A stretch of 54,986 nt of DNA from an uncultured archaeon (GTDB lineage Archaea > Asgardarchaeota > Heimdallarchaeia > Heimdallarchaeales > Kariarchaeaceae), in assembly GCA_964645535.1 (NCBI GenBank), contig CAZYCQ010000014.1, forward strand, positions 1-54,986, read 5' to 3'. A program made the translations under genes and the position numbers. Positions 1,771 through 52,755 of this stretch are shown in pieces. How positions within the stretch are numbered: the first letter of the stretch is position 1; each line of letters begins with the position of its first letter. Below the pieces are notes generated by a model. That model was given only the letters and a program-made list of their open reading frames with translations, did not search any database and was not told the DNA's origin.

Positions 1771-2013
1771 TTGCAAAGTTGTTTAGGAAGCCTTATTGTC
1801 CAAGTGCTTGAAAAAGATGAAGCATTGAATCTGATTGAAAGATTGACCCAGAGTGATTTGTCCAATTTTGCAGAGTTGAAGGAAAGAAAGGATTTAGAGT
1901 GGTTGGTAAATCAAGGGATTGTGCAATCCCATCAAGGATGGTACTCGCTTACTGAACTTGGATATCAATTGTCAATTATGATTGAAGATCTGATTGCTTG
2001 GGCCGAGGACTGA
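1771..2013 (+). CDS. Small winged-helix-like protein
   Basis: LEWLVNQGIVQSHQGWYSLTELG matches the wHTH wing pattern L-x3-G-x-V...Y-x-LT-x2-G. Confidence 0.5.
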   Translation: MQSCLGSLIVQVLEKDEALNLIERLTQSDLSNFAELKERKDLEWLVNQGIVQSHQGWYSLTELGYQLSIMIEDLIAWAED

Positions 2014-2864
2014 GAACCATTTTCCACATGGTCGAGAAATTCATTGATCATTCGTGAATGGTCGGGATGGAACTCCATTTTCGAATGGAGAGAATTTGGT
2101 ACGAGCCAGTACCAATCATTCTCTTTCAGGAGGGAGATATTTTTTTGGAAGTCTCGTTCTGGAGGGAACATGGAATCTTTTGCTCCATGGATCAAAAAAA
2201 TAGGCATGTCTAATCGAGGAAGAGTAAATTTTGGTTCGATTTCCTTCCAAGGAAAGTCCATTCGAAGTATAAGTACAACAATCCACCAATAAAGAATTCT
2301 AGGAATATGGAGAACACGCATGAAACCCTCGTACATTCCACGGATATCATGCAGTAAAGCCTCGGCAATAACTGCCCTGACAGGTTTTCTGGAGGCGAAG
2401 ATTGTTGATGCCAAGGCACCAAATGAAAGACCATGGACAATAGGAGATTCAATACCCTCAATTTCACAAATTTTCATTGCATGTTCCGCAAACCAGAGAG
2501 CAGTTGTTGTTTTTCGATATTTGCTTTGTCCATGCGACCAAGCATCCACAAACACCAAGGAATAACCGCGATCCCAGTAGATTTCTCCTCGAGAAACCAT
2601 TCTTGCAGAATTTCTCCCCCATGAGTGAAGAAGCACGACCCAGCGGTCATCTACTTGATTTGGGTTCCTGCAAATCCAATAACGGATGCCTTCGGGTTCA
2701 AGCCATCCTTTCTTCAGACTTCCATCTTCTGCAGTTCCAAACGGGATGAGATAGTCTTTTGATCTCCAAATGAAAATATTGTTGGTCAGCATCCAGAAAA
2801 CGATGATTACGGAGATTAAATACAGAACCACCACTGTAATGATCAAAGTGGAAAGAAACGACAT
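1965..2864 (-). CDS. Membrane-anchored alpha/beta hydrolase
   Basis: N-terminal TM; HGLSFG nucleophile elbow; IHGAKD acid; H in SLHSK. Confidence 0.85.
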   Translation of the reverse strand: MSFLSTLIITVVVLYLISVIIVFWMLTNNIFIWRSKDYLIPFGTAEDGSLKKGWLEPEGIRYWICRNPNQVDDRWVVLLHSWGRNSARMVSRGEIYWDRGYSLVFVDAWSHGQSKYRKTTTALWFAEHAMKICEIEGIESPIVHGLSFGALASTIFASRKPVRAVIAEALLHDIRGMYEGFMRVLHIPRILYWWIVVLILRMDFPWKEIEPKFTLPRLDMPIFLIHGAKDSMFPPERDFQKNISLLKENDWYWLVPNSLHSKMEFHPDHSRMINEFLDHVENGSQSSAQAIRSSIIIDN

Positions 2865-2929: not shown

Positions 2930-3619
2930 CTAAGACATTCTCAATCCACCATCAACTAAGATTGAGGTACCCGTTATATAGGAAGATTCGTCTGAAATGA
3001 GAAAATTGATGAGATTGGCCACTTCAGACGGGTTGCCAGCCCTTCCGAGAGGAATTAGGTTTAACAGGAGATCCATTCTTTCTTTGGGAATTTTTGCGGA
3101 CATTGGAGTTTCAATAAGACCAGGGATTATGCAATTTATTCTGATCCCATACCGGGCAAGTTCTCTGCTTGCAGATCGAACCAATCCTTGAATTCCTGCC
3201 TTAGAGGCACTGTAATTTGTTTGGCCAAAGTTTCCGTTGAGGGCTGCGGTGGAACCAACCATGACGATTGAACCTTTTCCTTGATTCCTCATATGTTCAG
3301 CGCATCTCTTCAGGACATTGAAACTCCCTGTTAGGTTTGTGGAGATGACGGAATCCCATTCTTCTTGGCTCATTTTGAAAAGGGTTCTATCTCTTGTAAT
3401 TCCTGCAAGGTTCACAAGTCCCGATATGAAAATGTTTTCATTTTCCAATTGATCAAAAAGGGCATTCACCGAATCCCAATTGGAAACATCAATGGGAAGG
3501 CAATGCTGACCGGAAAGTTGAGGGATATCCGCAGAAATAACATTGTATCCTGCCTCTTCCAGTCGAACGACAGTTGCCTTGCCAATCCCACCTAGAGCAC
3601 CAATTACCAGAACGTTCAT
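2930..3619 (-). CDS. SDR family oxidoreductase (FabG/3-hydroxyacyl-CoA dehydrogenase-like)
   Basis: GALGGIG Rossmann motif, NLAG, YSASK catalytic motif, PGLIET. ATGA overlap with the upstream gene. Confidence 0.9.
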   Translation of the reverse strand: MNVLVIGALGGIGKATVVRLEEAGYNVISADIPQLSGQHCLPIDVSNWDSVNALFDQLENENIFISGLVNLAGITRDRTLFKMSQEEWDSVISTNLTGSFNVLKRCAEHMRNQGKGSIVMVGSTAALNGNFGQTNYSASKAGIQGLVRSASRELARYGIRINCIIPGLIETPMSAKIPKERMDLLLNLIPLGRAGNPSEVANLINFLISDESSYITGTSILVDGGLRMS

Positions 3620-5196
3620 CTCAACACACCCAATTTGTCGAAACTGCGTAAAACAGAAAGTTCTTCCTTGCTTGGAGGTTGAGTCGTAGGAATTTCAGAA
3701 GGAATGTCGAAATCAAATCCAGTATTCTCAACGACAGTATCCAGTGACACACCCGGATGCAAGGATTTCAATGTCCATTTTCCATTCCACTCGAAGACGC
3801 AAAGGTTAGTCACAAGAAGTGCAGGTCGGGAACCACCATTCCCCACAGCACCAGGTCCGGAGACATATGAAACCTTTTCGACCAATGACCGAGGAGAATG
3901 ACCTAATGTGTAGAGATACATCCGACCGGCTTTAGGGAGAAAGGGGAGTCCCACACTTCCAGGCCCACGTAATTTCCACCCGGTATGACTTGGAATACCT
4001 CCAAGATTTGCACTGCCTATTGAGTCTATCTGAAGACCTCCAGCGAAGAAGAAATCGATCTTGGTCATCTCAATTCCAATTACCTCGTCCATCGAGAGTC
4101 TTGCAATAGCTCCCTTTGACATTTCATAATCTGTCGAAGATGGATAGAGAATTCCATGAGGATTGACATAACCGGATCCTCCTGCAATCCATCGGAGATT
4201 GGGGGCATGCAAAGCTTCAGCAAGCCGCATTGCAGCCATGGGGATTTCTGCAACGGCACCACAGATCCCAATTTCACCATCTCTTATTTCTCTGCTGAAA
4301 ACACACGCAATCAATTCTGAAATGGTGTAGTCACCATCATTTGGAGTACCGGTGAGTTCTGTCAGAAAAGTCTGTTGTGAAAGGAATTTTTCCTCAGAAA
4401 CATTCCTGAATTGATTGATCCAATTTGAAAGAGCATTTGGGTCCTTTGAAGCCTTAAGATATTCATGGATAGCAACCTCATTGTAGGCATAAACACCATG
4501 GGAAGAGGTTGGGAATGCGGCTCCTCTAAGAGGGATAACGTAATCAACCATGAATCCGGGAATAGTGACCAGTCGAGGATCGACCTTATCGATTAGATAA
4601 TCACAGGTCACTATTGTAACTTTTGCGGCTTCAGCCATTAAACGATCCAATACTACAGAGCCCAAATGCTCACAATCGCCAGTCTTGGTTGCCCGCTGGA
4701 CATGGATTAATGCAATATCAGGCACAAGAGCCGGAACGGCATAGACTTCCGTTCCAGTGAATGGATCGGAGACTTTCCGGTAGTATTTCGATTGGGAAGG
4801 GATGTCAGAGGCTTCATGTATTTCTTGGGGAAATGGGTGAAAAAGAAGCCCGTTGGCAGCAGCTCGAAGGCCATAGATTGGAAATGCTTCACATACATCG
4901 GGAGCTTCGACCAGTCCTTGCTCAACAGCCTTCCGGTAGTTGGGAGCCAAGCCCCACATTTCCATTCCTACATAGGGAGCCAAGATTTTCTTTACTGCCT
5001 TTGCAGCCACCAGTAGATCAATGGGAAGCCCTGTAGAAATTGATCCCAAAACCGTGAGATTTTTTGTCTCGTTTCTGATGATCTGTCGTATAAGGGACAT
5101 GGGGCCATTATGGGAATGGACACCACCTATTGCGACGAATGATCCATCAGGAACCAAATCTTTGGTAACTTGCTCAATTGTGATCAAATCCGCCAT
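3616..5196 (-). CDS. Fused alpha+beta family I CoA-transferase-fold protein (GctAB/AibAB/IpdAB-like)
   Basis: Alpha half: DGSFVAIGG, LRAAANGL, PDIALIHVQRA. Beta half: ELIACVFSREIRDG, HAPNL, GGLQIDSIGSAN, LVTNLCVF, HPGVSLDTVVENTGF. Confidence 0.88.
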   Translation of the reverse strand: MADLITIEQVTKDLVPDGSFVAIGGVHSHNGPMSLIRQIIRNETKNLTVLGSISTGLPIDLLVAAKAVKKILAPYVGMEMWGLAPNYRKAVEQGLVEAPDVCEAFPIYGLRAAANGLLFHPFPQEIHEASDIPSQSKYYRKVSDPFTGTEVYAVPALVPDIALIHVQRATKTGDCEHLGSVVLDRLMAEAAKVTIVTCDYLIDKVDPRLVTIPGFMVDYVIPLRGAAFPTSSHGVYAYNEVAIHEYLKASKDPNALSNWINQFRNVSEEKFLSQQTFLTELTGTPNDGDYTISELIACVFSREIRDGEIGICGAVAEIPMAAMRLAEALHAPNLRWIAGGSGYVNPHGILYPSSTDYEMSKGAIARLSMDEVIGIEMTKIDFFFAGGLQIDSIGSANLGGIPSHTGWKLRGPGSVGLPFLPKAGRMYLYTLGHSPRSLVEKVSYVSGPGAVGNGGSRPALLVTNLCVFEWNGKWTLKSLHPGVSLDTVVENTGFDFDIPSEIPTTQPPSKEELSVLRSFDKLGVLR

Positions 5197-5207
5197 TCAG
5201 CCGACCC

Positions 5208-6185
5208 CTATAGTTCCTTACCGCATACTCCACAATGCCTGAAGTTTTTTGGAAGACCCTTAGCTCCGCAAGATTGACAAGTTTTTGATGGAGGGCCCCA
5301 CATCAATTCAGAAGACCCACCATCTCTTGCAATTTCTCGGATCATTCGATAGTTGGGAGGACGTTTCTCAACGAAGGCAGTCATCCCTTCATATGGTTCC
5401 CAATTGGCATAGTGCAGTGTCAACCATTCCTTGGCATGGTTGATGGTTTGATACCATGAGAAATTTTTCCAGAAGTTGACCTGTTCTTTTGTATATCGGC
5501 TACATTCAGGGAACTTTTCAACGAGTTTTGCAGCCATTTTGTCCACAGCGGCATCCAATTCCTCGTAAGGAACAACTTGATTGACCAAGCCCCATTCCAT
5601 TGCCTTCCTTGCAGGAATAGGTTCGTTGAGAAAGAGGATTTCTCTTGCCCGCCTGTCACCGACAATGATTGGAAGCCATTGAGTCGCACCCCCTGCGGCA
5701 ACAGAGCCGACCCTTGTTCCGACTTGACGAATTGTCGCATGTTCCGCGGCAATTGCAAGATCACAGGCCATGTTCCATTCATTTCCCCCTCCAGCAACAA
5801 TTCCATTGATTCGGGCAATAGTGGGTTTACCAATGTTTCTGAAACGATCATGTGCCTCAACAAAAAGGGACATCCATTTGTAATAGTCTCTTGGTTTTTG
5901 GGTGAAGATACTTTGGTATTCTTTGACATCCCCACCTGTGCAAAATGCCTTGTCTCCTGCACCAGTAAGTATCACAACAGCTACTCCATCATCCCACATG
6001 GCATCCAAAAAAGCCTGAGACATTTCACGTAATGTTTCAGTTGAATAAGCATTGTAAACATGCGGACGATTGATTGTCACCTTTGCGACAAATTTGTCTC
6101 TATCCTTTTCATAGATTATTTCCTTGAAATCGTATTCTTCAGCATCCTTTGGTTGGAATTTCTCCTTGAATGTGTAGTCACTCAT
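5208..6185 (-). CDS. oah: 6-oxocyclohex-1-ene-1-carbonyl-CoA hydrolase (crotonase fold, ring opening)
   Basis: AFCTGGDVKEY, AGGGNE, QVGTRVGS-x-AAGGATQWLP, and a C-terminal CxxC...CxxC (CQSC...CGVC) as in Oah/BzdY/BamA. Located in the bcr cluster. Confidence 0.85.
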   Translation of the reverse strand: MSDYTFKEKFQPKDAEEYDFKEIIYEKDRDKFVAKVTINRPHVYNAYSTETLREMSQAFLDAMWDDGVAVVILTGAGDKAFCTGGDVKEYQSIFTQKPRDYYKWMSLFVEAHDRFRNIGKPTIARINGIVAGGGNEWNMACDLAIAAEHATIRQVGTRVGSVAAGGATQWLPIIVGDRRAREILFLNEPIPARKAMEWGLVNQVVPYEELDAAVDKMAAKLVEKFPECSRYTKEQVNFWKNFSWYQTINHAKEWLTLHYANWEPYEGMTAFVEKRPPNYRMIREIARDGGSSELMWGPPSKTCQSCGAKGLPKNFRHCGVCGKEL

Positions 6186-6198
6186 AATGGTTACCTCT

Positions 6199-6999
6199 TT
6201 AATTTATGTTTTTGATTTTTTGGAGTCGTTGAAAACCAAGACGTGCTGCACCAATGGCAGCGGAGAAGTGTGCATTCGGATCGGAGATGACTTCATGATC
6301 CAGAACCTCATCCAATGCCTTTTTCATGGCAGGCATGTGAACCAAACCACCTGCCAAAAATACAGGGGCATCCAGCTTCACTCTTTTCAAGAGGGTTCCA
6401 GCTCGATCTGCAATACTCATGAATACACCCATCAGAATATCTTCCACAGGAATCCCTTGCGACACATGGTTGATGATTTCGGTTTCAGAAAGCACTGCAC
6501 AAACACTTGATATTTTCTGGGGGTTCGTACTTTTCATGGCGGTTTCGGAAATCCGATCCATAGGGACGACCAAGTATCGTGAACATCGTTCGATGAAACG
6601 TCCGCTGCCTGCGGCACATCGTTCATTCATCTTGAATTGCACAATCTTGCCCCGCTCATCTATCCGGATGGCACGTGAAGACTGCGTACCGATATCCAAA
6701 ACGAGTGTGGGAAGATACTCATCATAGACAAATTTTGCCCCGCGACCGGTGGTAGTTAGATCACTGATCTGGATCTGTCTTTCATCCATCATATATCGTC
6801 CATAACCGGTAGAAGCGATGTAATCAATATCATCCCTAGAAAGTTTGGCTTTCTCAATCATTTCATTTAGAATTCGTGTTGCCATTTTACCGGGGGATCC
6901 TTTGGTGGGATGAATGGATCGGACAAGGATCTTTTCATTATCCTCAAGAAGAATCCCCTTTGTGGAACCGGTACCGATGTCAATCCCAGCCGTAATCAT
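6199..6999 (-). CDS. bcrD: Benzoyl-CoA reductase ATPase subunit D (BcrD/BadG)
   Basis: ASKHA motifs GIDIGTGSTK, STGYGR, LDIGTQ; cluster Cys in NERCAAGSG and SVCAVLSE. Confidence 0.82.
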   Translation of the reverse strand: MITAGIDIGTGSTKGILLEDNEKILVRSIHPTKGSPGKMATRILNEMIEKAKLSRDDIDYIASTGYGRYMMDERQIQISDLTTTGRGAKFVYDEYLPTLVLDIGTQSSRAIRIDERGKIVQFKMNERCAAGSGRFIERCSRYLVVPMDRISETAMKSTNPQKISSVCAVLSETEIINHVSQGIPVEDILMGVFMSIADRAGTLLKRVKLDAPVFLAGGLVHMPAMKKALDEVLDHEVISDPNAHFSAAIGAARLGFQRLQKIKNIN

Positions 7000-7823
7000 G
7001 GTTTCACCTCCATTGGCATGAATGCAGGATCATTTCCTTTTTCAAGTTCTTCTAATGCGAATAGAGCACCACCAATTGCACCGAACCATTGGGACAGGGG
7101 AGAGACATTGATTTTTCTTCCCAACCTATCTTCAAGTGCACGTACCATGCCCGTATTCCTTGAAACCCCTCCGGTGAAGGTGATCTCGTCTACAATCCCG
7201 ACCCTTCTCATCAATGAGATCGATCTTTCTGCAATGGAATAATGGAGGCCATTGACAATGTCTTCTGGTTTACGACCCCGTGCCAGTTGATTGGAAACTT
7301 CCGTTTCCGCAAAAACAGTACAGGTACTGGTTATCTTTACAGGTCTTTTGGATTTTTCCGAAATCGGACCCAAATCACCAACGGAGAAACCCAGTGCATC
7401 AGCACAGACATCCAAAAATCTCCCAGTCCCAGCGGAACACTTGTCATTCATGCTGAAATCAATGATTTCACCGTTCTCTCCAAGACGGATTGCCTTTGTG
7501 TCTTGCCCACCAATGTCAAGAGTGAGCCGGGTTTTGGGGAAAATGAATTGTGCACCCTTTGCATGGCATGAAATCTCAGTGACGATCAATTTTCCGAAAC
7601 GAACTTTTAATCTCCCATAACCGGTACCTGTAATGAGGGCAACCTGATCGCGATTGATTCCTGCATCTTCACAGGCTTTGAGGAATGCTGTTTCAGCGTC
7701 TTCAGCCACTCTCGGAGAAACATCCTGCAATGATTTTCCGATAATGTTCCTTTCAGCATCCAATATGATCGCTTTTGCGGTAGTACTCCCTACATCTACG
7801 CCTGCAACATATTCTGCCTTCAT
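6996..7823 (-). CDS. bcrA: Benzoyl-CoA reductase ATPase subunit A (BcrA/BadF-like, short form)
   Basis: GVDVGSTTAK, TGYGR, EISCH, DIGGQDTK, NDKCSAGTG, STCTVFAE. Confidence 0.82.
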   Translation of the reverse strand: MKAEYVAGVDVGSTTAKAIILDAERNIIGKSLQDVSPRVAEDAETAFLKACEDAGINRDQVALITGTGYGRLKVRFGKLIVTEISCHAKGAQFIFPKTRLTLDIGGQDTKAIRLGENGEIIDFSMNDKCSAGTGRFLDVCADALGFSVGDLGPISEKSKRPVKITSTCTVFAETEVSNQLARGRKPEDIVNGLHYSIAERSISLMRRVGIVDEITFTGGVSRNTGMVRALEDRLGRKINVSPLSQWFGAIGGALFALEELEKGNDPAFMPMEVKP

Positions 7824-7827
7824 TGTC

Positions 7828-9078
7828 TCACCTTTTCATCTTCAATGCCTCGAAAAAGGCATCAACTCGATTGAGAATTTGTGCTTCTGCCCAATATCGA
7901 GGGTCTTGGTGGTCTGATTCCACATAAAGGGCAGGATAACCAAGTTCGTTGATCACATAGTCCCGAAGATCACCCTGCCCTGCTGTGAAACTTCGACAAC
8001 TTTTGATCCCGTGAATGACCAAGGCATCGGCCTGAAAATCCTTGAGATATCTTTTGATGGTTTCTCGCCGGAAATCCCATGAAAGATTGCAATAACTGAA
8101 GATGCTGTAGCGGGCAATGCTTTCCCATGGGTTTGAAGGATCGTGCCGCAATTCAGGAAGATCAAACATTCCGCCAACTTTTGGATAGGTGGCTGCGACT
8201 GATACTGCATTCCATTTCTTGAACATATTCCAGAATGAACGATAGCCAGGATATGGGGGAACCCCCTCAATGACAGTCCTGAATTCCTCATTTTCAATGG
8301 GTCCAATCCCATGAGCCACGCGTTCGTCCAGTTCCATATTCAGAAGTTCGTAGAAGTCTGCCGCTTCTTTTGTACCTCTTAATGCATTAATGGGAAACAT
8401 GTAAAAGATAGATTCGAAATATGCATCGATTGGAGAAGGTACATGTTTTGCCATTTCAAAACTTCTTCCCCATCCATCTTCGGCTTTTCTGGAGTATGTC
8501 AACACCTCCTTGAGTCGGTTCATATCGAATGTGATATCGAACAGTTGTTCGATCTTCTCTACCATTTCCTGAAGCTGACCGATTATGTATTCAATATCCT
8601 CTTTCTGTGGGTCATTGAATCTATGATATGGTACATCAAGCATGATCAAGGGAACCTTATAGAATTCTGCCAATGCTTCCCACCATTTGGCATAGACAGA
8701 ACACCCAGAATAATTGCAAACCAAAAGATCGGGTCTGGGAATCTTTCCCATATCACTTTCTCCTCCCGATAGATGTGTAAGTCCAATATCTGTCTTGACA
8801 TAACCGCAAACATCCAAACCATATCCAATGGATTCAGCCTTTAGGATATATTGTAATGATTGGTGCCTAATAGCCATTGTAAGAGCTGTGATTTCTGGCA
8901 TGTAAACTTGGAAACCCAAGGCTCTCAGAAGTTCAGCAGGATTTCCACCTACAAAAAGGTAGACCACAGGTTTGGTTACATCCTGCCGATAGAAATCTCG
9001 GACAAGTTGCCTCTGCAATTTCCGTGCAGCACCTGCATATTTGAGATCTTTTTTTTCGGAAGCAACTATAGTTTCCAT
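7828..9078 (-). CDS. bcrB: Benzoyl-CoA reductase subunit B (BcrB/BadE)
   Basis: DVCGYVKTD, YSGC, ATYPKVGG...RHDP, IKSCRSFTAGQ; HgdD/BcrB family with Thauera/Rhodopseudomonas-type signatures (recalled). Confidence 0.85.
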   Translation of the reverse strand: METIVASEKKDLKYAGAARKLQRQLVRDFYRQDVTKPVVYLFVGGNPAELLRALGFQVYMPEITALTMAIRHQSLQYILKAESIGYGLDVCGYVKTDIGLTHLSGGESDMGKIPRPDLLVCNYSGCSVYAKWWEALAEFYKVPLIMLDVPYHRFNDPQKEDIEYIIGQLQEMVEKIEQLFDITFDMNRLKEVLTYSRKAEDGWGRSFEMAKHVPSPIDAYFESIFYMFPINALRGTKEAADFYELLNMELDERVAHGIGPIENEEFRTVIEGVPPYPGYRSFWNMFKKWNAVSVAATYPKVGGMFDLPELRHDPSNPWESIARYSIFSYCNLSWDFRRETIKRYLKDFQADALVIHGIKSCRSFTAGQGDLRDYVINELGYPALYVESDHQDPRYWAEAQILNRVDAFFEALKMKR

Positions 9079-9271: not shown

Positions 9272-10438
9272 TCAATCGAATAGCAGAGATTCCACAAAGG
9301 TTTCCAATGAAAGCCGGATATTTTCATATCCAGAACCTCGTTCTTCAAATTCAATGTGCACACTTGGGATTCCTTGTTCCTGCAATGCCTGTTGTTGCAA
9401 CACCAAGTCATCCAAAGCAGGTTCACAGAATTTGGCAGTCAGAAAGATAACTCCATCGGCATTGGCGTTTTTGACGCGTTCTAGAATTACAGCTCCTTTT
9501 TCACCTTCGTGAAATCTGGTAGCAGTTTTTGCACCTGCCTTTAGGTAATGGGCAGCTAAGGCTTCAAGAGGGTTCTCATCAACATTGACAGGGGTCTGAT
9601 AGAATCTTCGGCCAATCATAAAATCATCATCAATAACATAGCACCCAACCTGTTCAATCAGCCGAATAATGTCAATTGGGGGCTGTTCACAGAAATTGCC
9701 GGTAACCACCACTCGGATTGCGTCTTTTTTAGTTCGAGAACTCTTTTCGTATTTAGTCAACTTTTCTAGAAGCAGGGCATTGTGCTGAACAACATCCAAG
9801 TTTGATCCAATTCTCATAGTCAGATAAAGATCATCGAGGGGAACCTTCCAAGGCTCAGTTGACCGGAGTTCGTATAACCTGCGGTAGAGCTCCCGATTTT
9901 CATTGTAGAGTGTAATTGCATTCTTCAGTCGTTCCATATCAAGATCTTCCTCTGGGAAAAGAGTCTTTACCATTCTTTGGAATTCATTTGTCAGGTAAGG
10001 AATCGAGTGTTGTGATTGGACGTTTTGAGCCAGATGGAGCATGTAAACTGGTTTCGAAATTCTTCGGCTGAAAATTCCAGAAAGATTGCGTGCCACATCA
10101 CAGATAAAGGGGAATACAAAACCGTCAAATGCATTATTGAATGGTTCATGTGATAGAAGAAGTTCTGTAGTTGATTTGGATATACTACAAATGAACGACC
10201 CGAGAATGGCATCTGCGTGGCTGATCGAAATCTCCTCCCCTCCCCCATAGATATTTACCGGAAGATGCCCAAATGCATAAATCAATTCGTGAGGAACATA
10301 AACTGGAAAGGTAGCAATGGCCTTTTTTCCAGGATGGGCTTTCTTCCACTTGTGAACCTCCTCAAAATCTATATCATAGGTAATTTCTTGCAGATTTGTT
10401 AGGAGAGGAACAATATCTGGAGATGCAGAAGTGGTCAT
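9272..10438 (-). CDS. bcrC: Benzoyl-CoA reductase subunit C (BcrC/BadD)
   Basis: SFICSI, FPFICDVARNLSG, GNFCEQPP, KFCEPAL, ETFVES. Confidence 0.85.
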   Translation of the reverse strand: MTTSASPDIVPLLTNLQEITYDIDFEEVHKWKKAHPGKKAIATFPVYVPHELIYAFGHLPVNIYGGGEEISISHADAILGSFICSISKSTTELLLSHEPFNNAFDGFVFPFICDVARNLSGIFSRRISKPVYMLHLAQNVQSQHSIPYLTNEFQRMVKTLFPEEDLDMERLKNAITLYNENRELYRRLYELRSTEPWKVPLDDLYLTMRIGSNLDVVQHNALLLEKLTKYEKSSRTKKDAIRVVVTGNFCEQPPIDIIRLIEQVGCYVIDDDFMIGRRFYQTPVNVDENPLEALAAHYLKAGAKTATRFHEGEKGAVILERVKNANADGVIFLTAKFCEPALDDLVLQQQALQEQGIPSVHIEFEERGSGYENIRLSLETFVESLLFD

Positions 10439-10497: not shown

Positions 10498-11532
10498 CTA
10501 ATGATCACCTATAGTTACCACAGTTCTGATGCCTCTACCGCCCCTCAGTTCATGGAATGCTTCATTGATTTTCTCGAGAGGATAACGAGAGGTTACAAGA
10601 GGCTCTAATTTCACCTTTCCTTCCTTTACCAAATGGATGACTCTTGAAAAGTCTCTGGGAGGACATCCTAAACTTCCAAGCACTTCCAGCTCACGAAACA
10701 TGACCTTTCCTGAATTGAAGCCATCCCATTTTTTGGGAGAATACCCCACTAAAACCAATTTACCACCTGCTGAAAGAAGGTCATACCCCATTTGCTGGGT
10801 TTTAGGATTGCCTACAACCTCAAATACAACATCCACTCGTGAAAAAGACGATTTCAGAACTGTCTTGGGATCATCGTTTTGTGGATTAATGGTAACATGA
10901 GCACCAAGTTTCTGTGCCAATTCCAATTTGTCATCTTGAAGATCAATGGCAACCACTGTTGCACCCGCAACGCTCAGCATTTGGACAACGTTGATTCCAA
11001 CACCTCCACAACCGATGACCACTGCAATGTCACCGGGGGTTACTTGGGCTCGATTGAAAACGGCATGGTATGGGGTAGCGATTGCATCAGCAATAATCGC
11101 GGATTCAATCAGAGGCAGACGTAAAGGAAGTTTAACAATATCCCTTGCAGGAACAGCCACATATTCTGCAAAAGCACCATCAATATGATTCCCCAACATT
11201 TGCTGGTTTTGGCACAGGGTTTCTCGACCATTTCTGCAAGCAAAACAGGAACCACAAGTCAAAACGGGGGGGATAAGAACCCTATCCCCTTCTGTGAAAC
11301 CAGAGACATTTTCACCGACCTCCACAACATATCCGCTAGGTTCGTGCCCTAAAATAATTGGTGGTTTTTTGAATGTAGGAACTCCTTCAAGATATCCTTC
11401 ATCAGTATGACACACACCGCATGCCATGATTTTGACAAGGATGTCTTGAGAAGAAGGTTGGGGAATGTCAATGTCGCGGATTTCCAATGTTGGAACCCCA
11501 GTATAGACTGCTGCCTTCATTTGTGATGTCAT
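10498..11532 (-). CDS. had: Zn-dependent alcohol dehydrogenase, probable 6-hydroxycyclohex-1-ene-1-carbonyl-CoA dehydrogenase
   Basis: CGVCHTD, GHE, structural Zn CGSCFAC...C, IADAIATPY, GCGGVG, GSLGCPP; first gene of the bcr cluster. Confidence 0.78.
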   Translation of the reverse strand: MTSQMKAAVYTGVPTLEIRDIDIPQPSSQDILVKIMACGVCHTDEGYLEGVPTFKKPPIILGHEPSGYVVEVGENVSGFTEGDRVLIPPVLTCGSCFACRNGRETLCQNQQMLGNHIDGAFAEYVAVPARDIVKLPLRLPLIESAIIADAIATPYHAVFNRAQVTPGDIAVVIGCGGVGINVVQMLSVAGATVVAIDLQDDKLELAQKLGAHVTINPQNDDPKTVLKSSFSRVDVVFEVVGNPKTQQMGYDLLSAGGKLVLVGYSPKKWDGFNSGKVMFRELEVLGSLGCPPRDFSRVIHLVKEGKVKLEPLVTSRYPLEKINEAFHELRGGRGIRTVVTIGDH

Positions 11533-11677
11533 GGAACCCCTTAGATACAATACTATTTATACCATTCTTGGGAAGAAATCCAAGTTTGTCAAGTTTGTCC
11601 CTATTGGAAGGAAAAGAAACATGCATCCATAGTCTCATGACAGGGAGTTTATTTAGGCAACTGAACGGAGAGGCATA

Positions 11678-26784: not shown

Positions 26785-29577
26785 ATGGATTTGGATCTTC
26801 AACTAGAGATTGTTTCAAAAAGGGTCTACCGGGGACCTAACCTTTACCATTATGATAAGGCAATGTTGGTTGTTGTCGATATCGGAGATCTTGAGGATTT
26901 TCCCTCAATGAAGCTTAAGGGGTTCAATGAACGTTTATTGAAGTTGATTCCCTCTTTGGACACACATACATGTAGCCTTGGGGTTCCGGGAGGGTTCATC
27001 AGAAGACTTACAGAGGATGAAGGCACGTGGATGGGTCATATTTTTGAACATGTGGCTATCGAAATACAGAATTTGGCGGGAATTGATGTTTCCTTTGGAA
27101 AAACGAGGCAAAGAAAGGGCGAGAAAGGAAGAACTGGAAAAGAAAGTGTCTATAACGTTGTTTTTGAATATAAGAATGAAGAAACTGCATTATCTGCTAC
27201 GACACTGGCTCAACGGACGGTCAATTATTGTGTAGACCCCAAGCAGGTTCCTGATTTTGATTTTGAAAAAGAATTGAAGGAAGTCATTGAAATTGCACAG
27301 GAGTTCGCCTATGGCCCTTCTACCGGGGCAATTGTTGCAGAGGCAGAACGAAGAGGGATTCCAACAATACGACTTCAAAAACGATGGTCTCTTGTTCAAT
27401 TTGGATGGGGAAATAGGCAAAAGAGAATATGGGCATCCACTAGCTCCATGACACCATATATTGCTACAGAAATAGCTCAGGAAAAGGAATTGACATTACA
27501 GATGCTTTATGATGTTGGAATCCCGGTGCCAAGGGGGGGAGAGGTTCGAACATATGAGGGTGCATTGGAAGAGGTAAGGAGGATTGGCTATCCAGTTGTC
27601 ACAAAACCTTCAGATGTTTCTCATGGAAGAGGGGTGTATCTAAACATCAGGGATGACAAAGCCTTGAAGAAAGGATTTGAGATTGCAAAAGAATATTCTA
27701 GAGACGTGATTGTTGAACAATACATTGAAGGTAACGATTATAGGGTATTGGTCATCAATGGTGAATTTGTTGCCGCAGCTCAGCGAATTCCAGCCCATGT
27801 CATCGGAGACGGAGAGCATACCATTGAAGAGCTGGTGGAAATCGTCAATCAGGATCCAAGACGAGGAATCGGCCATGAAAAAGTTTTGACACAAATCGTT
27901 ATTGACCAGCCATCCCTAGACCTCCTTGAAGCGCAAGGATTAACCCTTTCCAGCATTCCCGAAAAAGGAAGATTTGTTCAGTTGAAATCAACAGCAAACC
28001 TGTCAACTGGAGGAACTGCAATTGACGTGACAGACATTATCCATTATGACAATATCCGGCTTGCAGAAAGGGCAGTCAAGACTATTGGATTGGATATTGC
28101 GGGAGTTGATATCATTGCGGAAGATATCTCCAAACCAATTCTTGCACAAAGAGGGGTCATCATTGAAGTCAATGCCGCACCGGGTTTGAGGATGCATCTT
28201 GAACCCACAGAAGGAACGCCAAGAAATGTTGCAAAACCAATTGTCGACATGTTGTTTCCAGATGGAGATGCCGGTCGAATTCCGCTCATTGCGGTCACAG
28301 GAACCAATGGAAAAACCACTGTTTCAAGATGGATTGCTCATGTTTTGAAACTGGCAGGGAAAAAGGTCGGTCTAACCACCACAGATGGAATCTATATTGA
28401 TGGAGAACTGCAATATAGTGGTGATTGCACGGGACCATGGAGTGCAAAGGCAGTTCTGAAAGATCCCACAGTTAATTTTGCAGTTTTAGAGACTGCAAGA
28501 GGCGGAATCATCCGGGAAGGATTAGGCTGGGATTTCTGTGATGTGGGATGCCTTCTGAATGTTTCTGAAGACCATCTAGGTCTTGGAGGTGTTAAAACCC
28601 TAGATGATTTAGCTGATGTGAAGGCTGTGGTCTTGGATCAGGTGAAGAAAGATGTTGGATACGGGGTAATCAATGCAGATGATCCATTAGTCATGGAACG
28701 TCGAGGAAGAATAAGAGGAAAGACAGTGTTAATATCACTTGATTACAGGAATCAGGACTTGCAGGAACATGTGGAAACCGGAGGAGATGCAGTCACCATT
28801 ACCCCAAATGGTGTTATCCAATTGATTCGAAACAATTCTCAAACACCAATCCTCCATGTTAAGGAAATTCCAGCTTGTTACAATGGTCATGCAGTATTCA
28901 ATATTGTCAATGCCATGTTTGTTGTTGGAGCCACCTTTCCTTTTGTTTCAGTTGAAGACATTAGAACAGGACTTTCTTCCTTCAATACCAGTTTCAGCCT
29001 CAGTCCGGGAAGGATGAACATTGAATATGTCAAAGGTGCAAGAGTTGTCATTGACTATGGCCATAATCCCGAAGCATTGAAGGCACAGATTCAGTTGATT
29101 GAAGGATTGCACAAAGACCAAAACCATGTAGGAAGGAAAGCCATTGTCTTTGGTATGCCAGGAGACAGACCAAACCAAACGATCATCAATGCGGCAAAGA
29201 TTGTTGCCAATCATTATGACAGGTATTTTCTCAAGGAAGATTGGAATCTTCGAGGACGGAAATCAGGTGAGGTTCCGCAATTGATTGCAGAAATTCTCAT
29301 GAAAGAAGGGGTTTCCAATAAAGCCATTGAAATCTTTGCAGGAGAAAAAAATGAACTTGATGCTGTAACTGCACTTTATGAGTGGTTACAGCTAAATGAT
29401 CTTGCTGTTATCCAAGCAGATGATATTCCGAAGGTCCGCCATCATTTACTTTCAAGGTTGGCAAAAATGAAAGACACAACATTTGAGACAATGCCAGTAC
29501 ATGAACCAAGGGATGAGCATGAATTCAATTATGAAAGAATAGCGGAATACACTAAAAGAGATGAACCATCAGATTGA
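26785..29577 (+). CDS. cphA: Cyanophycin synthetase (CphA1)
   Basis: N domain RGPN, HTCS...GTWMGHIFEH, GPST. ATP-grasp KP-x3-SHGRGV, EQYIEGNDYR, ANLSTGG, EVNAAPGLRMH. Mur-ligase-like VTGTNGKTT, LETARGG, EDHLG, PGRMN, DYGHNP, PGDR. Confidence 0.97.
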   Translation: MDLDLQLEIVSKRVYRGPNLYHYDKAMLVVVDIGDLEDFPSMKLKGFNERLLKLIPSLDTHTCSLGVPGGFIRRLTEDEGTWMGHIFEHVAIEIQNLAGIDVSFGKTRQRKGEKGRTGKESVYNVVFEYKNEETALSATTLAQRTVNYCVDPKQVPDFDFEKELKEVIEIAQEFAYGPSTGAIVAEAERRGIPTIRLQKRWSLVQFGWGNRQKRIWASTSSMTPYIATEIAQEKELTLQMLYDVGIPVPRGGEVRTYEGALEEVRRIGYPVVTKPSDVSHGRGVYLNIRDDKALKKGFEIAKEYSRDVIVEQYIEGNDYRVLVINGEFVAAAQRIPAHVIGDGEHTIEELVEIVNQDPRRGIGHEKVLTQIVIDQPSLDLLEAQGLTLSSIPEKGRFVQLKSTANLSTGGTAIDVTDIIHYDNIRLAERAVKTIGLDIAGVDIIAEDISKPILAQRGVIIEVNAAPGLRMHLEPTEGTPRNVAKPIVDMLFPDGDAGRIPLIAVTGTNGKTTVSRWIAHVLKLAGKKVGLTTTDGIYIDGELQYSGDCTGPWSAKAVLKDPTVNFAVLETARGGIIREGLGWDFCDVGCLLNVSEDHLGLGGVKTLDDLADVKAVVLDQVKKDVGYGVINADDPLVMERRGRIRGKTVLISLDYRNQDLQEHVETGGDAVTITPNGVIQLIRNNSQTPILHVKEIPACYNGHAVFNIVNAMFVVGATFPFVSVEDIRTGLSSFNTSFSLSPGRMNIEYVKGARVVIDYGHNPEALKAQIQLIEGLHKDQNHVGRKAIVFGMPGDRPNQTIINAAKIVANHYDRYFLKEDWNLRGRKSGEVPQLIAEILMKEGVSNKAIEIFAGEKNELDAVTALYEWLQLNDLAVIQADDIPKVRHHLLSRLAKMKDTTFETMPVHEPRDEHEFNYERIAEYTKRDEPSD

Positions 29578-35255: not shown

Positions 35256-36305
35256 ATGTGGGTTACCCATTTTACACGATCTTTTGTTGCAGCCATACTC
35301 CTTTATCTTGCAATGGTGCAAGTATTGGGGAGGGAAGACTACTTTTCAAAATTCATAGTCCATCTTGCAAATATGATTGTTTTTGCAATGACATTTGGTT
35401 TGATAATGCCCAGCATCGGCATTAATAATTCCATTGGTTTTGAGCCAGAACCCATGAGCCAGTATATTCCACTGGTAATTCTGTCTGTTCTGATCTACAT
35501 TGGAAGTTTCTATGCCATTATGAGTTTAACGGATCCGTATTTGAACCCTATAAGGGAGCTAAATGCAAATCTGGAAAAAAGAAAATTCAAAGCGGAGTTT
35601 TCTGAAGAAATATTGAAAGATTCCTTTTTTGGACCGATCTATCACCTCCTTCAAGAAATGCTTCGTGGTATGGAATTGTTGATTAGTGAAGCATCAAAAG
35701 TGGTGAACACAATAGAGGTTTCTTCAGAAAGCCTTGCAAAAGAGACTCAGGAAATTGCCAGCATCATTGAGGAGGTAGCTTCCACCTCAGATTCTGCAAG
35801 TCAAGCCGCAAATACACAAGCAATACAGATATCTGAGCTGTTAGAAGAGGTAATGCAGAGTTCTTCGAGAATTGGAAAGGTTGTTGAAGATATCAGTTTG
35901 GCAACAGATGCAGTTAGAGAAGTTTCCATTCAAACAAGCATAATTGCACTCAATGCAGCAGTGGAGGCATCAAAAGCAGGAGAAGCCGGCAAAGGCTTTG
36001 CAGTGGTTGCAGATGATATACGAAGATTGTCAGAAGAATCAAGAAAATCGGTCGATACCATCAGTGAAATATCGTCAAATATTATGAAGGAATTGGATAG
36101 CCTTTTTGTCCGAATTCAGGAAAAGGTAGAAAATGTTGCAACTATATCTGAAGAGACAGCCGCATCATCGGAGGAGATATCAGCATCTGCACATGAGATA
36201 AAGACAACAATTGAAAGAATTGCACAAGATACAAGAAAATTGTCTGATGAAACTGAGAGACTGAATACGGCGATGAAATCACTGCTTTTGCAATCTATGG
36301 ACTGA
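35256..36305 (+). CDS. Methyl-accepting chemotaxis protein (possibly extends to ATG 35088 through an in-frame TGA)
   Basis: MCP hairpin tip QTSIIALNAAVEASKAGEAGKGFAVVADDIRRLSE; N-terminal TM helices. Confidence 0.9.
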   Translation: MWVTHFTRSFVAAILLYLAMVQVLGREDYFSKFIVHLANMIVFAMTFGLIMPSIGINNSIGFEPEPMSQYIPLVILSVLIYIGSFYAIMSLTDPYLNPIRELNANLEKRKFKAEFSEEILKDSFFGPIYHLLQEMLRGMELLISEASKVVNTIEVSSESLAKETQEIASIIEEVASTSDSASQAANTQAIQISELLEEVMQSSSRIGKVVEDISLATDAVREVSIQTSIIALNAAVEASKAGEAGKGFAVVADDIRRLSEESRKSVDTISEISSNIMKELDSLFVRIQEKVENVATISEETAASSEEISASAHEIKTTIERIAQDTRKLSDETERLNTAMKSLLLQSMD

Positions 36306-44234: not shown

Positions 44235-44912
44235 ATGTCACTCGTTGCTGTTTTGGTTGAAGCTTTAATCCTTGCATCTTCAGGACTGATTTCAGTAGGC
44301 TCAATCCTTATCGTAATTCTTCTACTCATCTCAGAGAGAGGATTGAAGAATGGGATTGGGTATGTAGCTGGTTACATTTTCGGATATTCTCTGATCTCAA
44401 CTGGGATGATTCTTCTTCAACAGCGTACGGCAAATCAAGGCGGATCAAGTAGTAATATGACATTCAACTATATTTCGATATTTTTTGGATTGGTATTACT
44501 CTATTTGGCTTTCAAAAATTTCAGGAAACAACCGGATCTCGAGAAGAAAGAAGATCCAAAATTGTTTCGAATACTAGACGGAATTACACCTGTTAAGGCA
44601 TTTTCTTTGGGATTGGTTGTGACAATACTGAATTTCAAGAATTTGGCCCTTTTTCTGACATCGATCTCTGTTGTAGCCTTTAGCGGATTGTCAATTTCGG
44701 AGAAGATTTTCGCGGCTGTTCTCGTTATCATAGTGTTCACTATCTCCGTAATGACACCGGTCTTCATCTACCTACTCTTCCCTACTCGGGGAAGGGAGAT
44801 TTTAGAAACGATCAGAGATGCTCTTAAGCGACATAGTCGACCCATTTCCATATGGGGACCATTAATTTTTGGTGTAATCCTATTGTTCAGAGGAGGAATG
44901 GCAATATTATGA
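44235..44912 (+). CDS. Gap/Sap family (LysE-superfamily) membrane protein
   Basis: About 6 TM; ILIVILLLIS-x-RG-x2-NG-x2-Y-x2-G and LNFKNLAL resemble the Gap/Sap family pattern. Confidence 0.7.
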   Translation: MSLVAVLVEALILASSGLISVGSILIVILLLISERGLKNGIGYVAGYIFGYSLISTGMILLQQRTANQGGSSSNMTFNYISIFFGLVLLYLAFKNFRKQPDLEKKEDPKLFRILDGITPVKAFSLGLVVTILNFKNLALFLTSISVVAFSGLSISEKIFAAVLVIIVFTISVMTPVFIYLLFPTRGREILETIRDALKRHSRPISIWGPLIFGVILLFRGGMAIL

Positions 44913-47569
44913 AAAAAGAAAAACTTGTTTTGAAATTTAGTGAAGTTGATGCTTCAGACCTACCCTTGGTGGGAGGAAAAGGTGCCAATTTAGGAGAGAT
45001 GACTCAGGCACGATTCCCCGTTCCACAGGGGTTCTGTGTTACAACAAAAGCATATGAGTTGTTTATTTCCCAAAATGGCATTGGAGATGAGGTGAATGAC
45101 CTTCTCAAGGGTATTTCCACATCAACCCTTGATGAAATCAGGACAGTGGGTGAAAAGATAAGACAAAAGCTGACGGAACTACCCATGCCAGAAAAGATCA
45201 AGAACGAGGTTAAGAGGTATTGGGAAGAATTGGGAGTGGAAAAGCCCTTAGCAGTGAGGTCGAGTGCAACTGCAGAGGATCTCCCTGACGCATCTTTTGC
45301 TGGACAACAGGAAAGCTATCTCAATATTCTCGGATTTGACCAATTGATGGATGCCATCAAAAAATGCTGGATTTCACTTTTTACAGATAGGGCCATAGCC
45401 TATAGAATTACCAACAATTTTGACCATAGGGAAGTAAAGTTGTCTGTGGTAGTCCAAGAGATGGTCATGGCGGAGAAATCGGGCATCCTTTTTACGGCAG
45501 ATCCCTTAACCGGTCATCGTCTAACCTTGACAATTGATGCAAGCTATGGTTTGGGCGAAGCTCTTGTCAGCGGGATTGTTGAACCAGATACATACCGGAT
45601 CGATAAACGAGATCTGAAGATTGTGGATCAAATAATCGGGAAGAAGGAAATTGCAATTTTCCCCACCAAAGAAGGTGGTACGGAACAGAAATTTCTGGAC
45701 AAGGAGTTAAGTCGAAAACCCGTTTTGAATAAAGAAGAAATCAAGGAACTTGCAGAACTCGGAAAGAAAGTTGAAAAGCATTATGGGACACCTCAAGACA
45801 TCGAGTGGGCGATTATGGACAAGAAACTCTATTTATTGCAGACACGTCCCATCACCTCCCTTTATCCAATCGAAGGACTGCAAAGGCCAGATGGAAGATT
45901 CAGTATCTTCTTCAGCATGGGACATCAGCAGGGAATGACAAGACCAATGACTCCATTAAGCATTTCTGCAATTAGGGTTCTTGCACCGATTGGAGATCAA
46001 CAAGAGAGTGAATACATCCGAGTAGCCGGGAGCAGACCTTACGCAGACATAACACTACCACTCAAACATAGACTCATGCGGAGGGTGGTGATGAGAGTTG
46101 TATACCAATTTGATGTTTTAGCACCCGAAGCATTAAAGCAACTAATGAAGAGGAAGGAATTCAAGAAGGTAAAGGGGAAAAGGGTTCCGCTCAGAAATTA
46201 TAGGTTCATTTTCAGAAATATTAGGAGAGTATTTTTCGCCCTTTGGTTTAGGGATCTCACGGGAATAGTTTCGAGAACCAATAATCTTTGCGATCATTTT
46301 GTACAACAAATTTCAGATGACTTGAATGGAATTCCACCGACGAAGGAGAAAATAGAGGCAATTACCAGAATCCTCCCCTCTATACCAGAAATTTTCCTCA
46401 ATTGGGTACCAGAAGCGGCTGCCGGAATTGCAGCTACGCGATTGCTTGAAAAATGGGCGAAGAAATGGCTGGATGAGGAACATGTAGAGGCACTGACATT
46501 AGGAATTCCAGGCAACGTTGTCAACGAGATGAATATGGCAATTAGCGACCTTGCATCGATCGCGAGAAAAAACCCACAGCTAGTTAAGGCGTTCGATCGA
46601 TTAGAAGATGACGCAATTTCATGGCTTAATGAAGCAAGGAAAATTGACGGCACTGCCGAGTTCTTTGAGGCATGGGATAGTTTTATTGAATTCTACGGAT
46701 GCAGAGGTCCATCTGAAATTGACATCGCGCAACCTCGCTGGTATGAAAACCCTCTGCCTGTGTTGAAGGTAATCCATGAACACATCCTGAGAGAGGAGAT
46801 CAGTCAAAGAGACCGATATGAAGAATACGTCCGAAATAGAGAGGAAGCTTACCGAATGCTGATGGAAAAGGCTCGAAAGGGGATTTTTGGTCGGATGCGA
46901 ACAAGAAGGTTCCGAAGAATGTATCATGTAATGACGGAAGCCGGAGGTATGCGTGAACACCACAAGTTCCTAGTCATCCGTATTTTAAGAGTGTTCAAAG
47001 AACATTTCAAAGAAGTGGCCAAAGAGTTGGTAAGACAAGGGAAACTAGAACACGAAGAGGATATTTGGTTCCTTACTTGGCCAGACTTGCAAGAAATTTG
47101 GGAGAATGATGCAACTGATTGGAAATCAATTGTCACAGAAAGGAAAAAGGATTTCGAACGCCATCAGCATCTCAAGCCTCCACTGATAATAACCAGTGAC
47201 GGTGAAACCCCAGTTGTCCAGTTCAAGGTCAAAGATGCGCCGGAAGGGGCAATTTTGGGCAATCCAGTCTCTCCGGGAATTGTTGAAGGAACCGTGCATG
47301 TCATTCGTGATCCACACCAGGAAAGCTTAGCTCCAGGTGAAATATTAGTCGCAGAATTTACAGACCCAGGATGGACCCCTCTGTTCATCAACGCTAGCGG
47401 GCTGGTGCTGGAGGTTGGAGGAGCCTTGACACATGGTGCGGTTGTTGCAAGAGAGTATGGGATACCTGCAGTTGTGGGAGTGAGAAATGCGACAACCCTG
47501 CTCAAGACAGGCCAAAAGGTACGAATTGACGGGAACCGAGGGATTATTGAAATAATAGAACACGAATAA
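44909..47569 (+). CDS. Rifamycin-phosphotransferase-like PEP-synthase-family enzyme
   Basis: N-terminal ATP-grasp (VGGKGANLGE, AVRSSATAEDLPDASFAGQ, QDIEW, LQTRPIT); central domain with YGCRGPSEIDI-x2-PRW; C-terminal His swivel TDPGWTPLF...THGAVVAREYG. ATGA overlap gives a start at 44909. Confidence 0.88.
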   Translation: MKKEKLVLKFSEVDASDLPLVGGKGANLGEMTQARFPVPQGFCVTTKAYELFISQNGIGDEVNDLLKGISTSTLDEIRTVGEKIRQKLTELPMPEKIKNEVKRYWEELGVEKPLAVRSSATAEDLPDASFAGQQESYLNILGFDQLMDAIKKCWISLFTDRAIAYRITNNFDHREVKLSVVVQEMVMAEKSGILFTADPLTGHRLTLTIDASYGLGEALVSGIVEPDTYRIDKRDLKIVDQIIGKKEIAIFPTKEGGTEQKFLDKELSRKPVLNKEEIKELAELGKKVEKHYGTPQDIEWAIMDKKLYLLQTRPITSLYPIEGLQRPDGRFSIFFSMGHQQGMTRPMTPLSISAIRVLAPIGDQQESEYIRVAGSRPYADITLPLKHRLMRRVVMRVVYQFDVLAPEALKQLMKRKEFKKVKGKRVPLRNYRFIFRNIRRVFFALWFRDLTGIVSRTNNLCDHFVQQISDDLNGIPPTKEKIEAITRILPSIPEIFLNWVPEAAAGIAATRLLEKWAKKWLDEEHVEALTLGIPGNVVNEMNMAISDLASIARKNPQLVKAFDRLEDDAISWLNEARKIDGTAEFFEAWDSFIEFYGCRGPSEIDIAQPRWYENPLPVLKVIHEHILREEISQRDRYEEYVRNREEAYRMLMEKARKGIFGRMRTRRFRRMYHVMTEAGGMREHHKFLVIRILRVFKEHFKEVAKELVRQGKLEHEEDIWFLTWPDLQEIWENDATDWKSIVTERKKDFERHQHLKPPLIITSDGETPVVQFKVKDAPEGAILGNPVSPGIVEGTVHVIRDPHQESLAPGEILVAEFTDPGWTPLFINASGLVLEVGGALTHGAVVAREYGIPAVVGVRNATTLLKTGQKVRIDGNRGIIEIIEHE

Positions 47570-52460: not shown

Positions 52461-52755
52461 TAAAGGAGCATTTGGAAATAACCATATAACATTAATCACA
52501 TGTGAATAGATAAGAGAAAATCAATAAAGGTAAAAAACAAAGATGTAAAATATCCAAACCGATTTTCGGATTTTAACTGCAATTGATTTTGTACGATATA
52601 TGTGGTATTCCGTGTAAAAGACAAGTGTTAGAAGGAATAGTATCGCAAAAACATTGCAACGAAATGATGGGATGCCTGTTCATTGTTTTTGTAACAGAAA
52701 CCATGCATTTTTTCCATAAAACAATCTATTAAATCTCTATTCGATTTATTGAAGT

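Follow-up and report, generated by a model that had tools for sequence, protein, structure and literature searches.

Genes at the locus

Within the window, which is the whole 54,986-nucleotide stretch analyzed here, a tight run of co-directional genes extends from had to an SDR gene. The successive gaps along this run are 59, 193, 4, −4, 13, 11, and −4 nt, and the genes are as follows.

10498..11550, minus strand: Had (best family TIGR03201, 257 bits)
9272..10438, minus strand: BcrC-like subunit (TIGR02263, 308 bits)
7828..9078, minus strand: BcrB-like subunit (TIGR02260, 318 bits)
6996..7823, minus strand: short BcrA-like ATPase subunit, 275 aa (TIGR02259, 207 bits)
6199..6999, minus strand: BcrD-like ATPase subunit of class I benzoyl-CoA reductase (TIGR02261, 183 bits)
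5208..6185, minus strand: Oah-like ring-opening crotonase, 325 aa (named by synteny; under the TIGR03200 cut-off)
3616..5196, minus strand: class I CoA-transferase-fold protein of 526 aa with fused alpha and beta halves (proposed dienoyl-CoA hydratase in place of Dch)
2930..3619, minus strand: FabG-like SDR (4-nt overlap with the stop of the fused gene; same position in loci L001–L004)

The CoA-transferase fold and the benzoyl-CoA pathway are already known, as is the presence of benzoyl-CoA reductase (BCR) genes in Heimdallarchaeota (PMC8163825). The BcrB and BcrC subunits are of the Thauera type, and the short BcrA aligns with TIGR02259 over the C-terminal portion alone. The Oah-like protein gives 190 bits with MenB, 187 bits with BadI, and 182 bits with Oah, all of which are below the cut-offs, and it is 69% identical to its Firmicute orthologue. 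Proteins of this short type carry a C-terminal CxxC..CxxC zinc-ribbon motif, and relatives are encoded on 340 metagenome stretches. The SDR is likely to be a 3-hydroxypimeloyl-CoA dehydrogenase. An alpha/beta hydrolase gene (1965–2864, minus strand) begins 65 nt past the SDR gene; it is not kept beside the operon in relatives and probably lies outside it.

The steps of the pathway are catalyzed in the order BCR, Dch, Had, and Oah, and Oah does not accept the unsubstituted dienoyl-CoA (PMC5742626). The operon contains no Dch gene, and nothing in the genome, which is 89% complete, scores above 97 bits with the Dch family model TIGR03189. Dch-like genes of sister clusters score 137–192 bits with this model.

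Fold and closest structures of the fused protein

The open reading frame of the fused gene is intact and begins with ATG. Its product matches PF01144 twice, with the alpha half first and the beta half second, and the genome has no other gene of this kind. A family profile search returned no ECH family match, and hence the protein shows neither a crotonase fold nor TIGR03189 membership. Its close relatives are from Heimdallarchaeia, several of them named Kariarchaeaceae.

The top PDB matches are AibA/B, GctA/B, and IpdA/B. These are, respectively, the 3-methylglutaconyl-CoA decarboxylase of Myxococcus xanthus (5MZW), the glutaconate CoA-transferase of Acidaminococcus fermentans (1POI), and the IpdAB ring hydrolase that acts on COCHEA-CoA (6CO6 and 6COJ from Rhodococcus jostii, 6CON from M. 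tuberculosis). AibA and AibB are the best sequence matches (E values of 2.5e-25 and 2.8e-17), whereas the identity to IpdA is only ∼25%. An IpdA-like sequence (P0034) falls outside the 22-row clade of the subfamily in a quick tree, although on a long branch.

The structural comparison with GctAB, AibAB, and IpdAB that was proposed in the initial annotation established a shared fold but did not discriminate among the three. The AlphaFold model (pLDDT 90.4) matches IpdA with a Z-score of 31.6 (rmsd 1.7 Å over 271 aligned residues), which is the top match but is effectively tied with GctA (31.2) and AibA (30.3), and the beta half matches AibB with a Z-score of 26.4. These values describe whole models, and the residue equivalences given below are from sequence alignments.

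Active-site positions

Three motifs singled out in the initial annotation were recovered at the expected places: DVCEAF at residues 100–105, HAPNLRWIAGGSG at residues 330–342, and LYPSSTDY at residues 350–357. In class I CoA-transferases such as GctB, the beta-subunit residue Glu54 forms the CoA anhydride, and IpdB has Gly57 at this position (PMC5380842). The fused protein carries Gly339 in the column of the glutamate of GctB 'IIVESG', an alignment bridged through a GctB-like homologue. In the C56A/S/N crystal variants of AibB, this column holds Ala, Ser, or Asn. Glycine is found here in all bcr-linked members. The earlier claims that the catalytic beta glutamate is missing and that the protein is not a canonical CoA transferase both hold.

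In the alpha half, Glu103 occupies the column that is the sole difference between IpdA in 6CO6 (REMDEGMV) and its E105A mutant in 6COJ (REMDAGMV). The glutamate, which had been described as near the catalytic position of IpdA, therefore coincides with that residue exactly. AibA has glycine and GctA has glutamine in this column. IpdA Glu105 reportedly acts as a catalytic base, a role attributed to work by Crowe in 2018; the sole backing used here is the PDB title of the E105A–substrate complex. Glu103, His27, Tyr75, Glu79, Arg88, and Asp184-Arg185 are invariant among the 120 close alpha relatives. Every bcr/oah-linked member for which the region was sequenced has the alpha glutamate and lacks the beta glutamate, so the pattern did not arise by chance. 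As judged by alignment, the active-site signature is of the IpdAB type and not of the AibAB type.

These positions bear on the possibility, raised initially, that the protein is a lower-pathway glutaconyl-CoA decarboxylase that resembles AibAB and works without biotin. The likeness to AibB is genuine with respect to sequence rank and the shared PSS-x-D segment, and no clear decarboxylating glutaryl-CoA dehydrogenase was found among the acyl-CoA dehydrogenases tested from this genome; the search for lower-pathway enzymes yielded no assignments. However, the proton donors of AibB are Cys56 and Glu72, the latter being the second proton source (PMC7756340), and both are absent from the fused protein, which has Gly339 and Thr355 in these columns. 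In addition, AibA lacks the glutamate that is invariant in the subfamily, the gene context differs, and the genome encodes two biotin-type carboxyltransferases. Since AibB Cys56 variants remain active, the Gly339/Thr355 pair lowers the probability of decarboxylation without bringing it to zero. Given that Gly339 and Glu103 together define an IpdAB-like anatomy, we regard a decarboxylase as very unlikely.

Glu103 might instead serve as a relocated nucleophile in a CoA transferase or thioesterase, for example one that takes over the activation of benzoate from a ligase. No ligase gene is present in the operon, and none of the five family genomes yields a TIGR02262 match above the cut-off. In Firmicute clusters, however, the homologous pair adjoins a benzoate-CoA ligase gene (662 bits), and no CoA transfer was seen with IpdAB, which shares the residue pattern (PMC5380842). 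We consider this explanation very unlikely.

Distribution of the subfamily

The adjacent oah and fused genes are kept in L001–L005. In Peptococcaceae CEB3, Acididesulfobacillus acetoxydans, Paradesulfitobacterium ferrireducens, and uncultured bacteria, the bcr/oah clusters carry a pair of separate alpha and beta genes that retain the motifs of the fused protein. Across the locus survey, the subfamily gene usually directly follows oah. An alpha-subunit profile retrieves 505 proteins at E≤1e-70, for some of which the gene context was examined. Close relatives also reside away from bcr genes (P0050, P0021, and L030), and in one case (genome G051, locus L005) oah and the subfamily gene were present but no close BcrB was found. 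A plasmid search returned relatives at 40–44% identity only, and a search for shorter homologues missed subunits of 214–288 aa. Lokiarchaeal CoA-transferase pairs are 32–38% identical and have different motifs, and those that were mapped lie ∼55–60 kb from oah; this search scored at most three candidates per genome and is therefore not exhaustive with regard to absence.

Several additional arrangements were observed. Several other Asgard CoA-transferase-fold subfamilies (L026–L047, L023–L025, and L006) also lack the beta glutamate and have the alpha glutamate, and they include SEESEA/IMGNT and WECDEA/LQFRA types. A second alpha-beta fusion of the subfamily under study, in a Firmicute (L199, G456:C13), resembles the split pair of Firmicutes more closely than it does the archaeal fusion. 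Class II BCR-like genes (AFOR, HdrA-like, and NuoG-like) share a cluster with the pair and oah in L173 (A. acetoxydans), L007, and L200 (G510), and the first two of these loci additionally hold bzd-type class I BCR genes. A hemerythrin-domain gene, perhaps for oxygen protection, recurs beside bcr clusters (L055, L083, L119, and L003).

Mutual exclusion with Dch

A survey of co-occurrence with bcr and oah had been recommended at the outset. In the present survey, 80 metagenome loci were gathered by way of the Oah-like gene rather than the subfamily gene, and six earlier loci were added to give 86. The subfamily is present in 31 of these loci and a Dch-like second crotonase in 29, and no locus has both. 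After dereplication, each type is represented by 23 loci. Among clusters that are fully visible, flanked by 1 kb or more on either side, 14 have the subfamily, 18 have the Dch-like gene, one has neither, and none has both. A Fisher test on the 23/23 loci gives a p-value of 2e-13, which is an overstatement because kin are not independent. The number of changes on the Oah tree is a fairer measure: The label switches five times, and at least three of these switches are forced by well-supported branches. Within a single clade whose Oah proteins are ∼80% identical, the order crotonase-bcrCBAD-oah-SDR (L059, L073, and L095) contrasts with bcrCBAD-oah-alpha-beta-SDR (L055, L062, L066, and L101). In L086, the order is alpha-beta-had-oah. 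One locus (L069) appeared to be a counter-example, carrying Dch together with a CoA-transferase pair. This pair belongs to another subfamily that retains the beta glutamate, and therefore L069 does not contradict the exclusion.

The names 'Dch-like' and 'Oah-like' reflect the best family plus synteny, with scores under the curated cut-offs. TIGR03189 ranks first or second for the second crotonase in eight of 10 cases tested, at 163–192 bits against a cut-off of 292.5, and it is missing from the families listed for the second crotonase of L059 and L073. The latter observation could favor a different hydratase activity, of the BadK type, acting on cyclohex-1-ene-1-carbonyl-CoA in a Rhodopseudomonas-like route. 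Consistent with this, the gene after the pair in soil-type clusters encodes a BadH-like SDR (TIGR03206, 252 bits), and the ring-opening crotonase scores about equally with BadI and Oah. However, the window operon carries Had, which takes the product of Dch, and TIGR03189 is the best match of the swapped gene in most sister clusters. A BadK-type function is thus quite unlikely.

The same pattern is evident in genomes, all of which are incomplete drafts and include kin that are not independent. This type of Oah occurs in 55 of 400 Asgard genomes. In the family represented by the window, all five Oah-bearing genomes have the fused gene and lack a Dch-like gene, and no close orthologue of the fused gene was found in the seven genomes without Oah. 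In two other Asgard families, a Dch-like gene is present in 43 of the 46 genomes with Oah, frequently in the order oah-dch-had-bcr. In four Firmicute genomes, the cluster includes the subfamily and no score with TIGR03189 exceeds 102 bits. Hence, the subfamily and Dch are mutually exclusive in the surveyed loci and genomes, and by this measure the subfamily fills the hydratase slot of bcr-had-oah clusters.

Neither gene was found in eight Oah-bearing genomes, of which three have a more distant Oah and five are drafts; genomes and loci of this kind include G002–G004, G078, G586, and L081. Other solutions or gaps therefore exist, and these cases possibly reflect a third hydratase or missing assembly. 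The four Firmicute clusters also carry a crotonase near had that scores 332 bits as a short-chain ECH and 87 bits as Dch. The example in P. ferrireducens was considered as a candidate Dch and was rejected, since it scores as an ordinary short-chain crotonase. Such an enzyme could nevertheless perform the hydration.

A proposed dienoyl-CoA hydratase

Across archaea and bacteria, the subfamily is found where Dch is missing and therefore probably does the same job with an unrelated fold. We propose that the fused protein is a non-crotonase cyclohexa-1,5-diene-1-carbonyl-CoA hydratase that replaces Dch and uses Glu103 as the water-activating base, a reading based on gene context and alignment to which we assign a probability of about 0.6. 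In a broader form that we consider similarly plausible, an undescribed and widespread group of proteins with the class I CoA-transferase fold would consist of dienoyl-CoA hydratases, with repeated exchanges between this group and Dch across Asgard archaea, Firmicutes, and soil bacteria. Several facts speak against these proposals, including the ordinary crotonase of the Firmicute clusters, the relatives without bcr genes, the naming of Dch and Oah partners at scores under the cut-offs, and the Oah-bearing genomes with neither gene. Moreover, A. acetoxydans did not grow on benzoate despite having the cluster (PMC8982180).

The initial annotation had also offered a new ring hydratase or hydrolase, and the comparative evidence favors the first of these. 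An IpdAB-like ring hydrolase would be compatible with the Glu103 equivalence, with the top (although tied) structural match, with the usual position of the gene directly after oah, and with the failure of A. acetoxydans to use benzoate. The substrate of IpdAB also shares the oxocyclohexene-CoA core (PMC5380842). Such an enzyme, however, would repeat the work of Oah, found in every cluster, and would leave the step from dienoyl-CoA to Had empty; the low identity to IpdA is a further difficulty. A ring hydrolase is therefore unlikely. The exclusion with Dch is unexplained by a ring hydrolase, a decarboxylase, or a transferase alike.

In the mechanism that we infer for the hydratase, the thioester of cyclohexa-1,5-diene-1-carbonyl-CoA would bind in the alpha-beta cleft with no covalent enzyme-CoA intermediate. 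Glu103 would activate water for attack at C2, and the resulting thioester dienolate would be protonated at C5. The net 1,4-hydration would yield the substrate of Had. The C5 proton may come from the protonated Glu103 or from the conserved His27 or Glu79, the last two being candidates for this role. This proposal fits the precedents that IpdAB adds water across a cyclohexenoyl-CoA ring system (PMC5380842) and that AibAB protonates an enolate at the gamma carbon (PMC7756340).

Relation to known enzymes and pathways

The subfamily lacks the defining residues of class I transferases and of AibAB; it has those of IpdAB but not the IpdAB gene context. GctAB shares the fold and PF01144, and AibAB shares enolate chemistry in that fold. 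IpdAB has the same key positions in both halves and probably the same class of substrate, a cyclohexene-carbonyl-CoA. In contrast to IpdAB, the archaeal protein is a single fused chain for which hydration without ring cleavage is proposed. IpdAB belongs to a steroid C/D-ring cluster (echA20, ipdC, ipdF, and fadA6), whereas the genes here are bcr, had, and oah, and a ring-opening crotonase is always present. With Dch (Thauera; TIGR03189), the likeness is in the proposed reaction and the slot between BCR and Had. Because Dch is a crotonase and the fused protein has an unrelated fold, this would be a non-orthologous replacement. No account of the subfamily, or of a CoA-transferase-fold or other non-crotonase Dch, was found in the literature searched, a set that mostly excluded subscription journals.

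In the prevailing view, anaerobic aromatic degradation requires a crotonase, Dch, whose presence genome surveys use to score the pathway. If the hydratase proposal is true, there is a non-crotonase route through the anaerobic benzoyl-CoA pathway, and many seemingly incomplete clusters labeled 'glutaconate CoA-transferase' represent complete pathways. Hydration would then be a third non-transferase reaction of this fold, beside decarboxylation by AibAB and ring hydrolysis by IpdAB, and the enzyme would provide a simple model for the water-addition step of IpdAB. Cultured carriers include P. ferrireducens and A. acetoxydans.

Other genes in the window

The window also encodes a cyanophycin synthetase of 930 aa (26785–29577, plus strand), and a similar-looking open reading frame is present near the same operon in L001. 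Other genes encode a protein with an MCP signaling domain (35256–36305, plus strand), a PEP synthase/PPDK-like protein (44852–47569, plus strand), and a PAS histidine kinase (49668–52499, minus strand).
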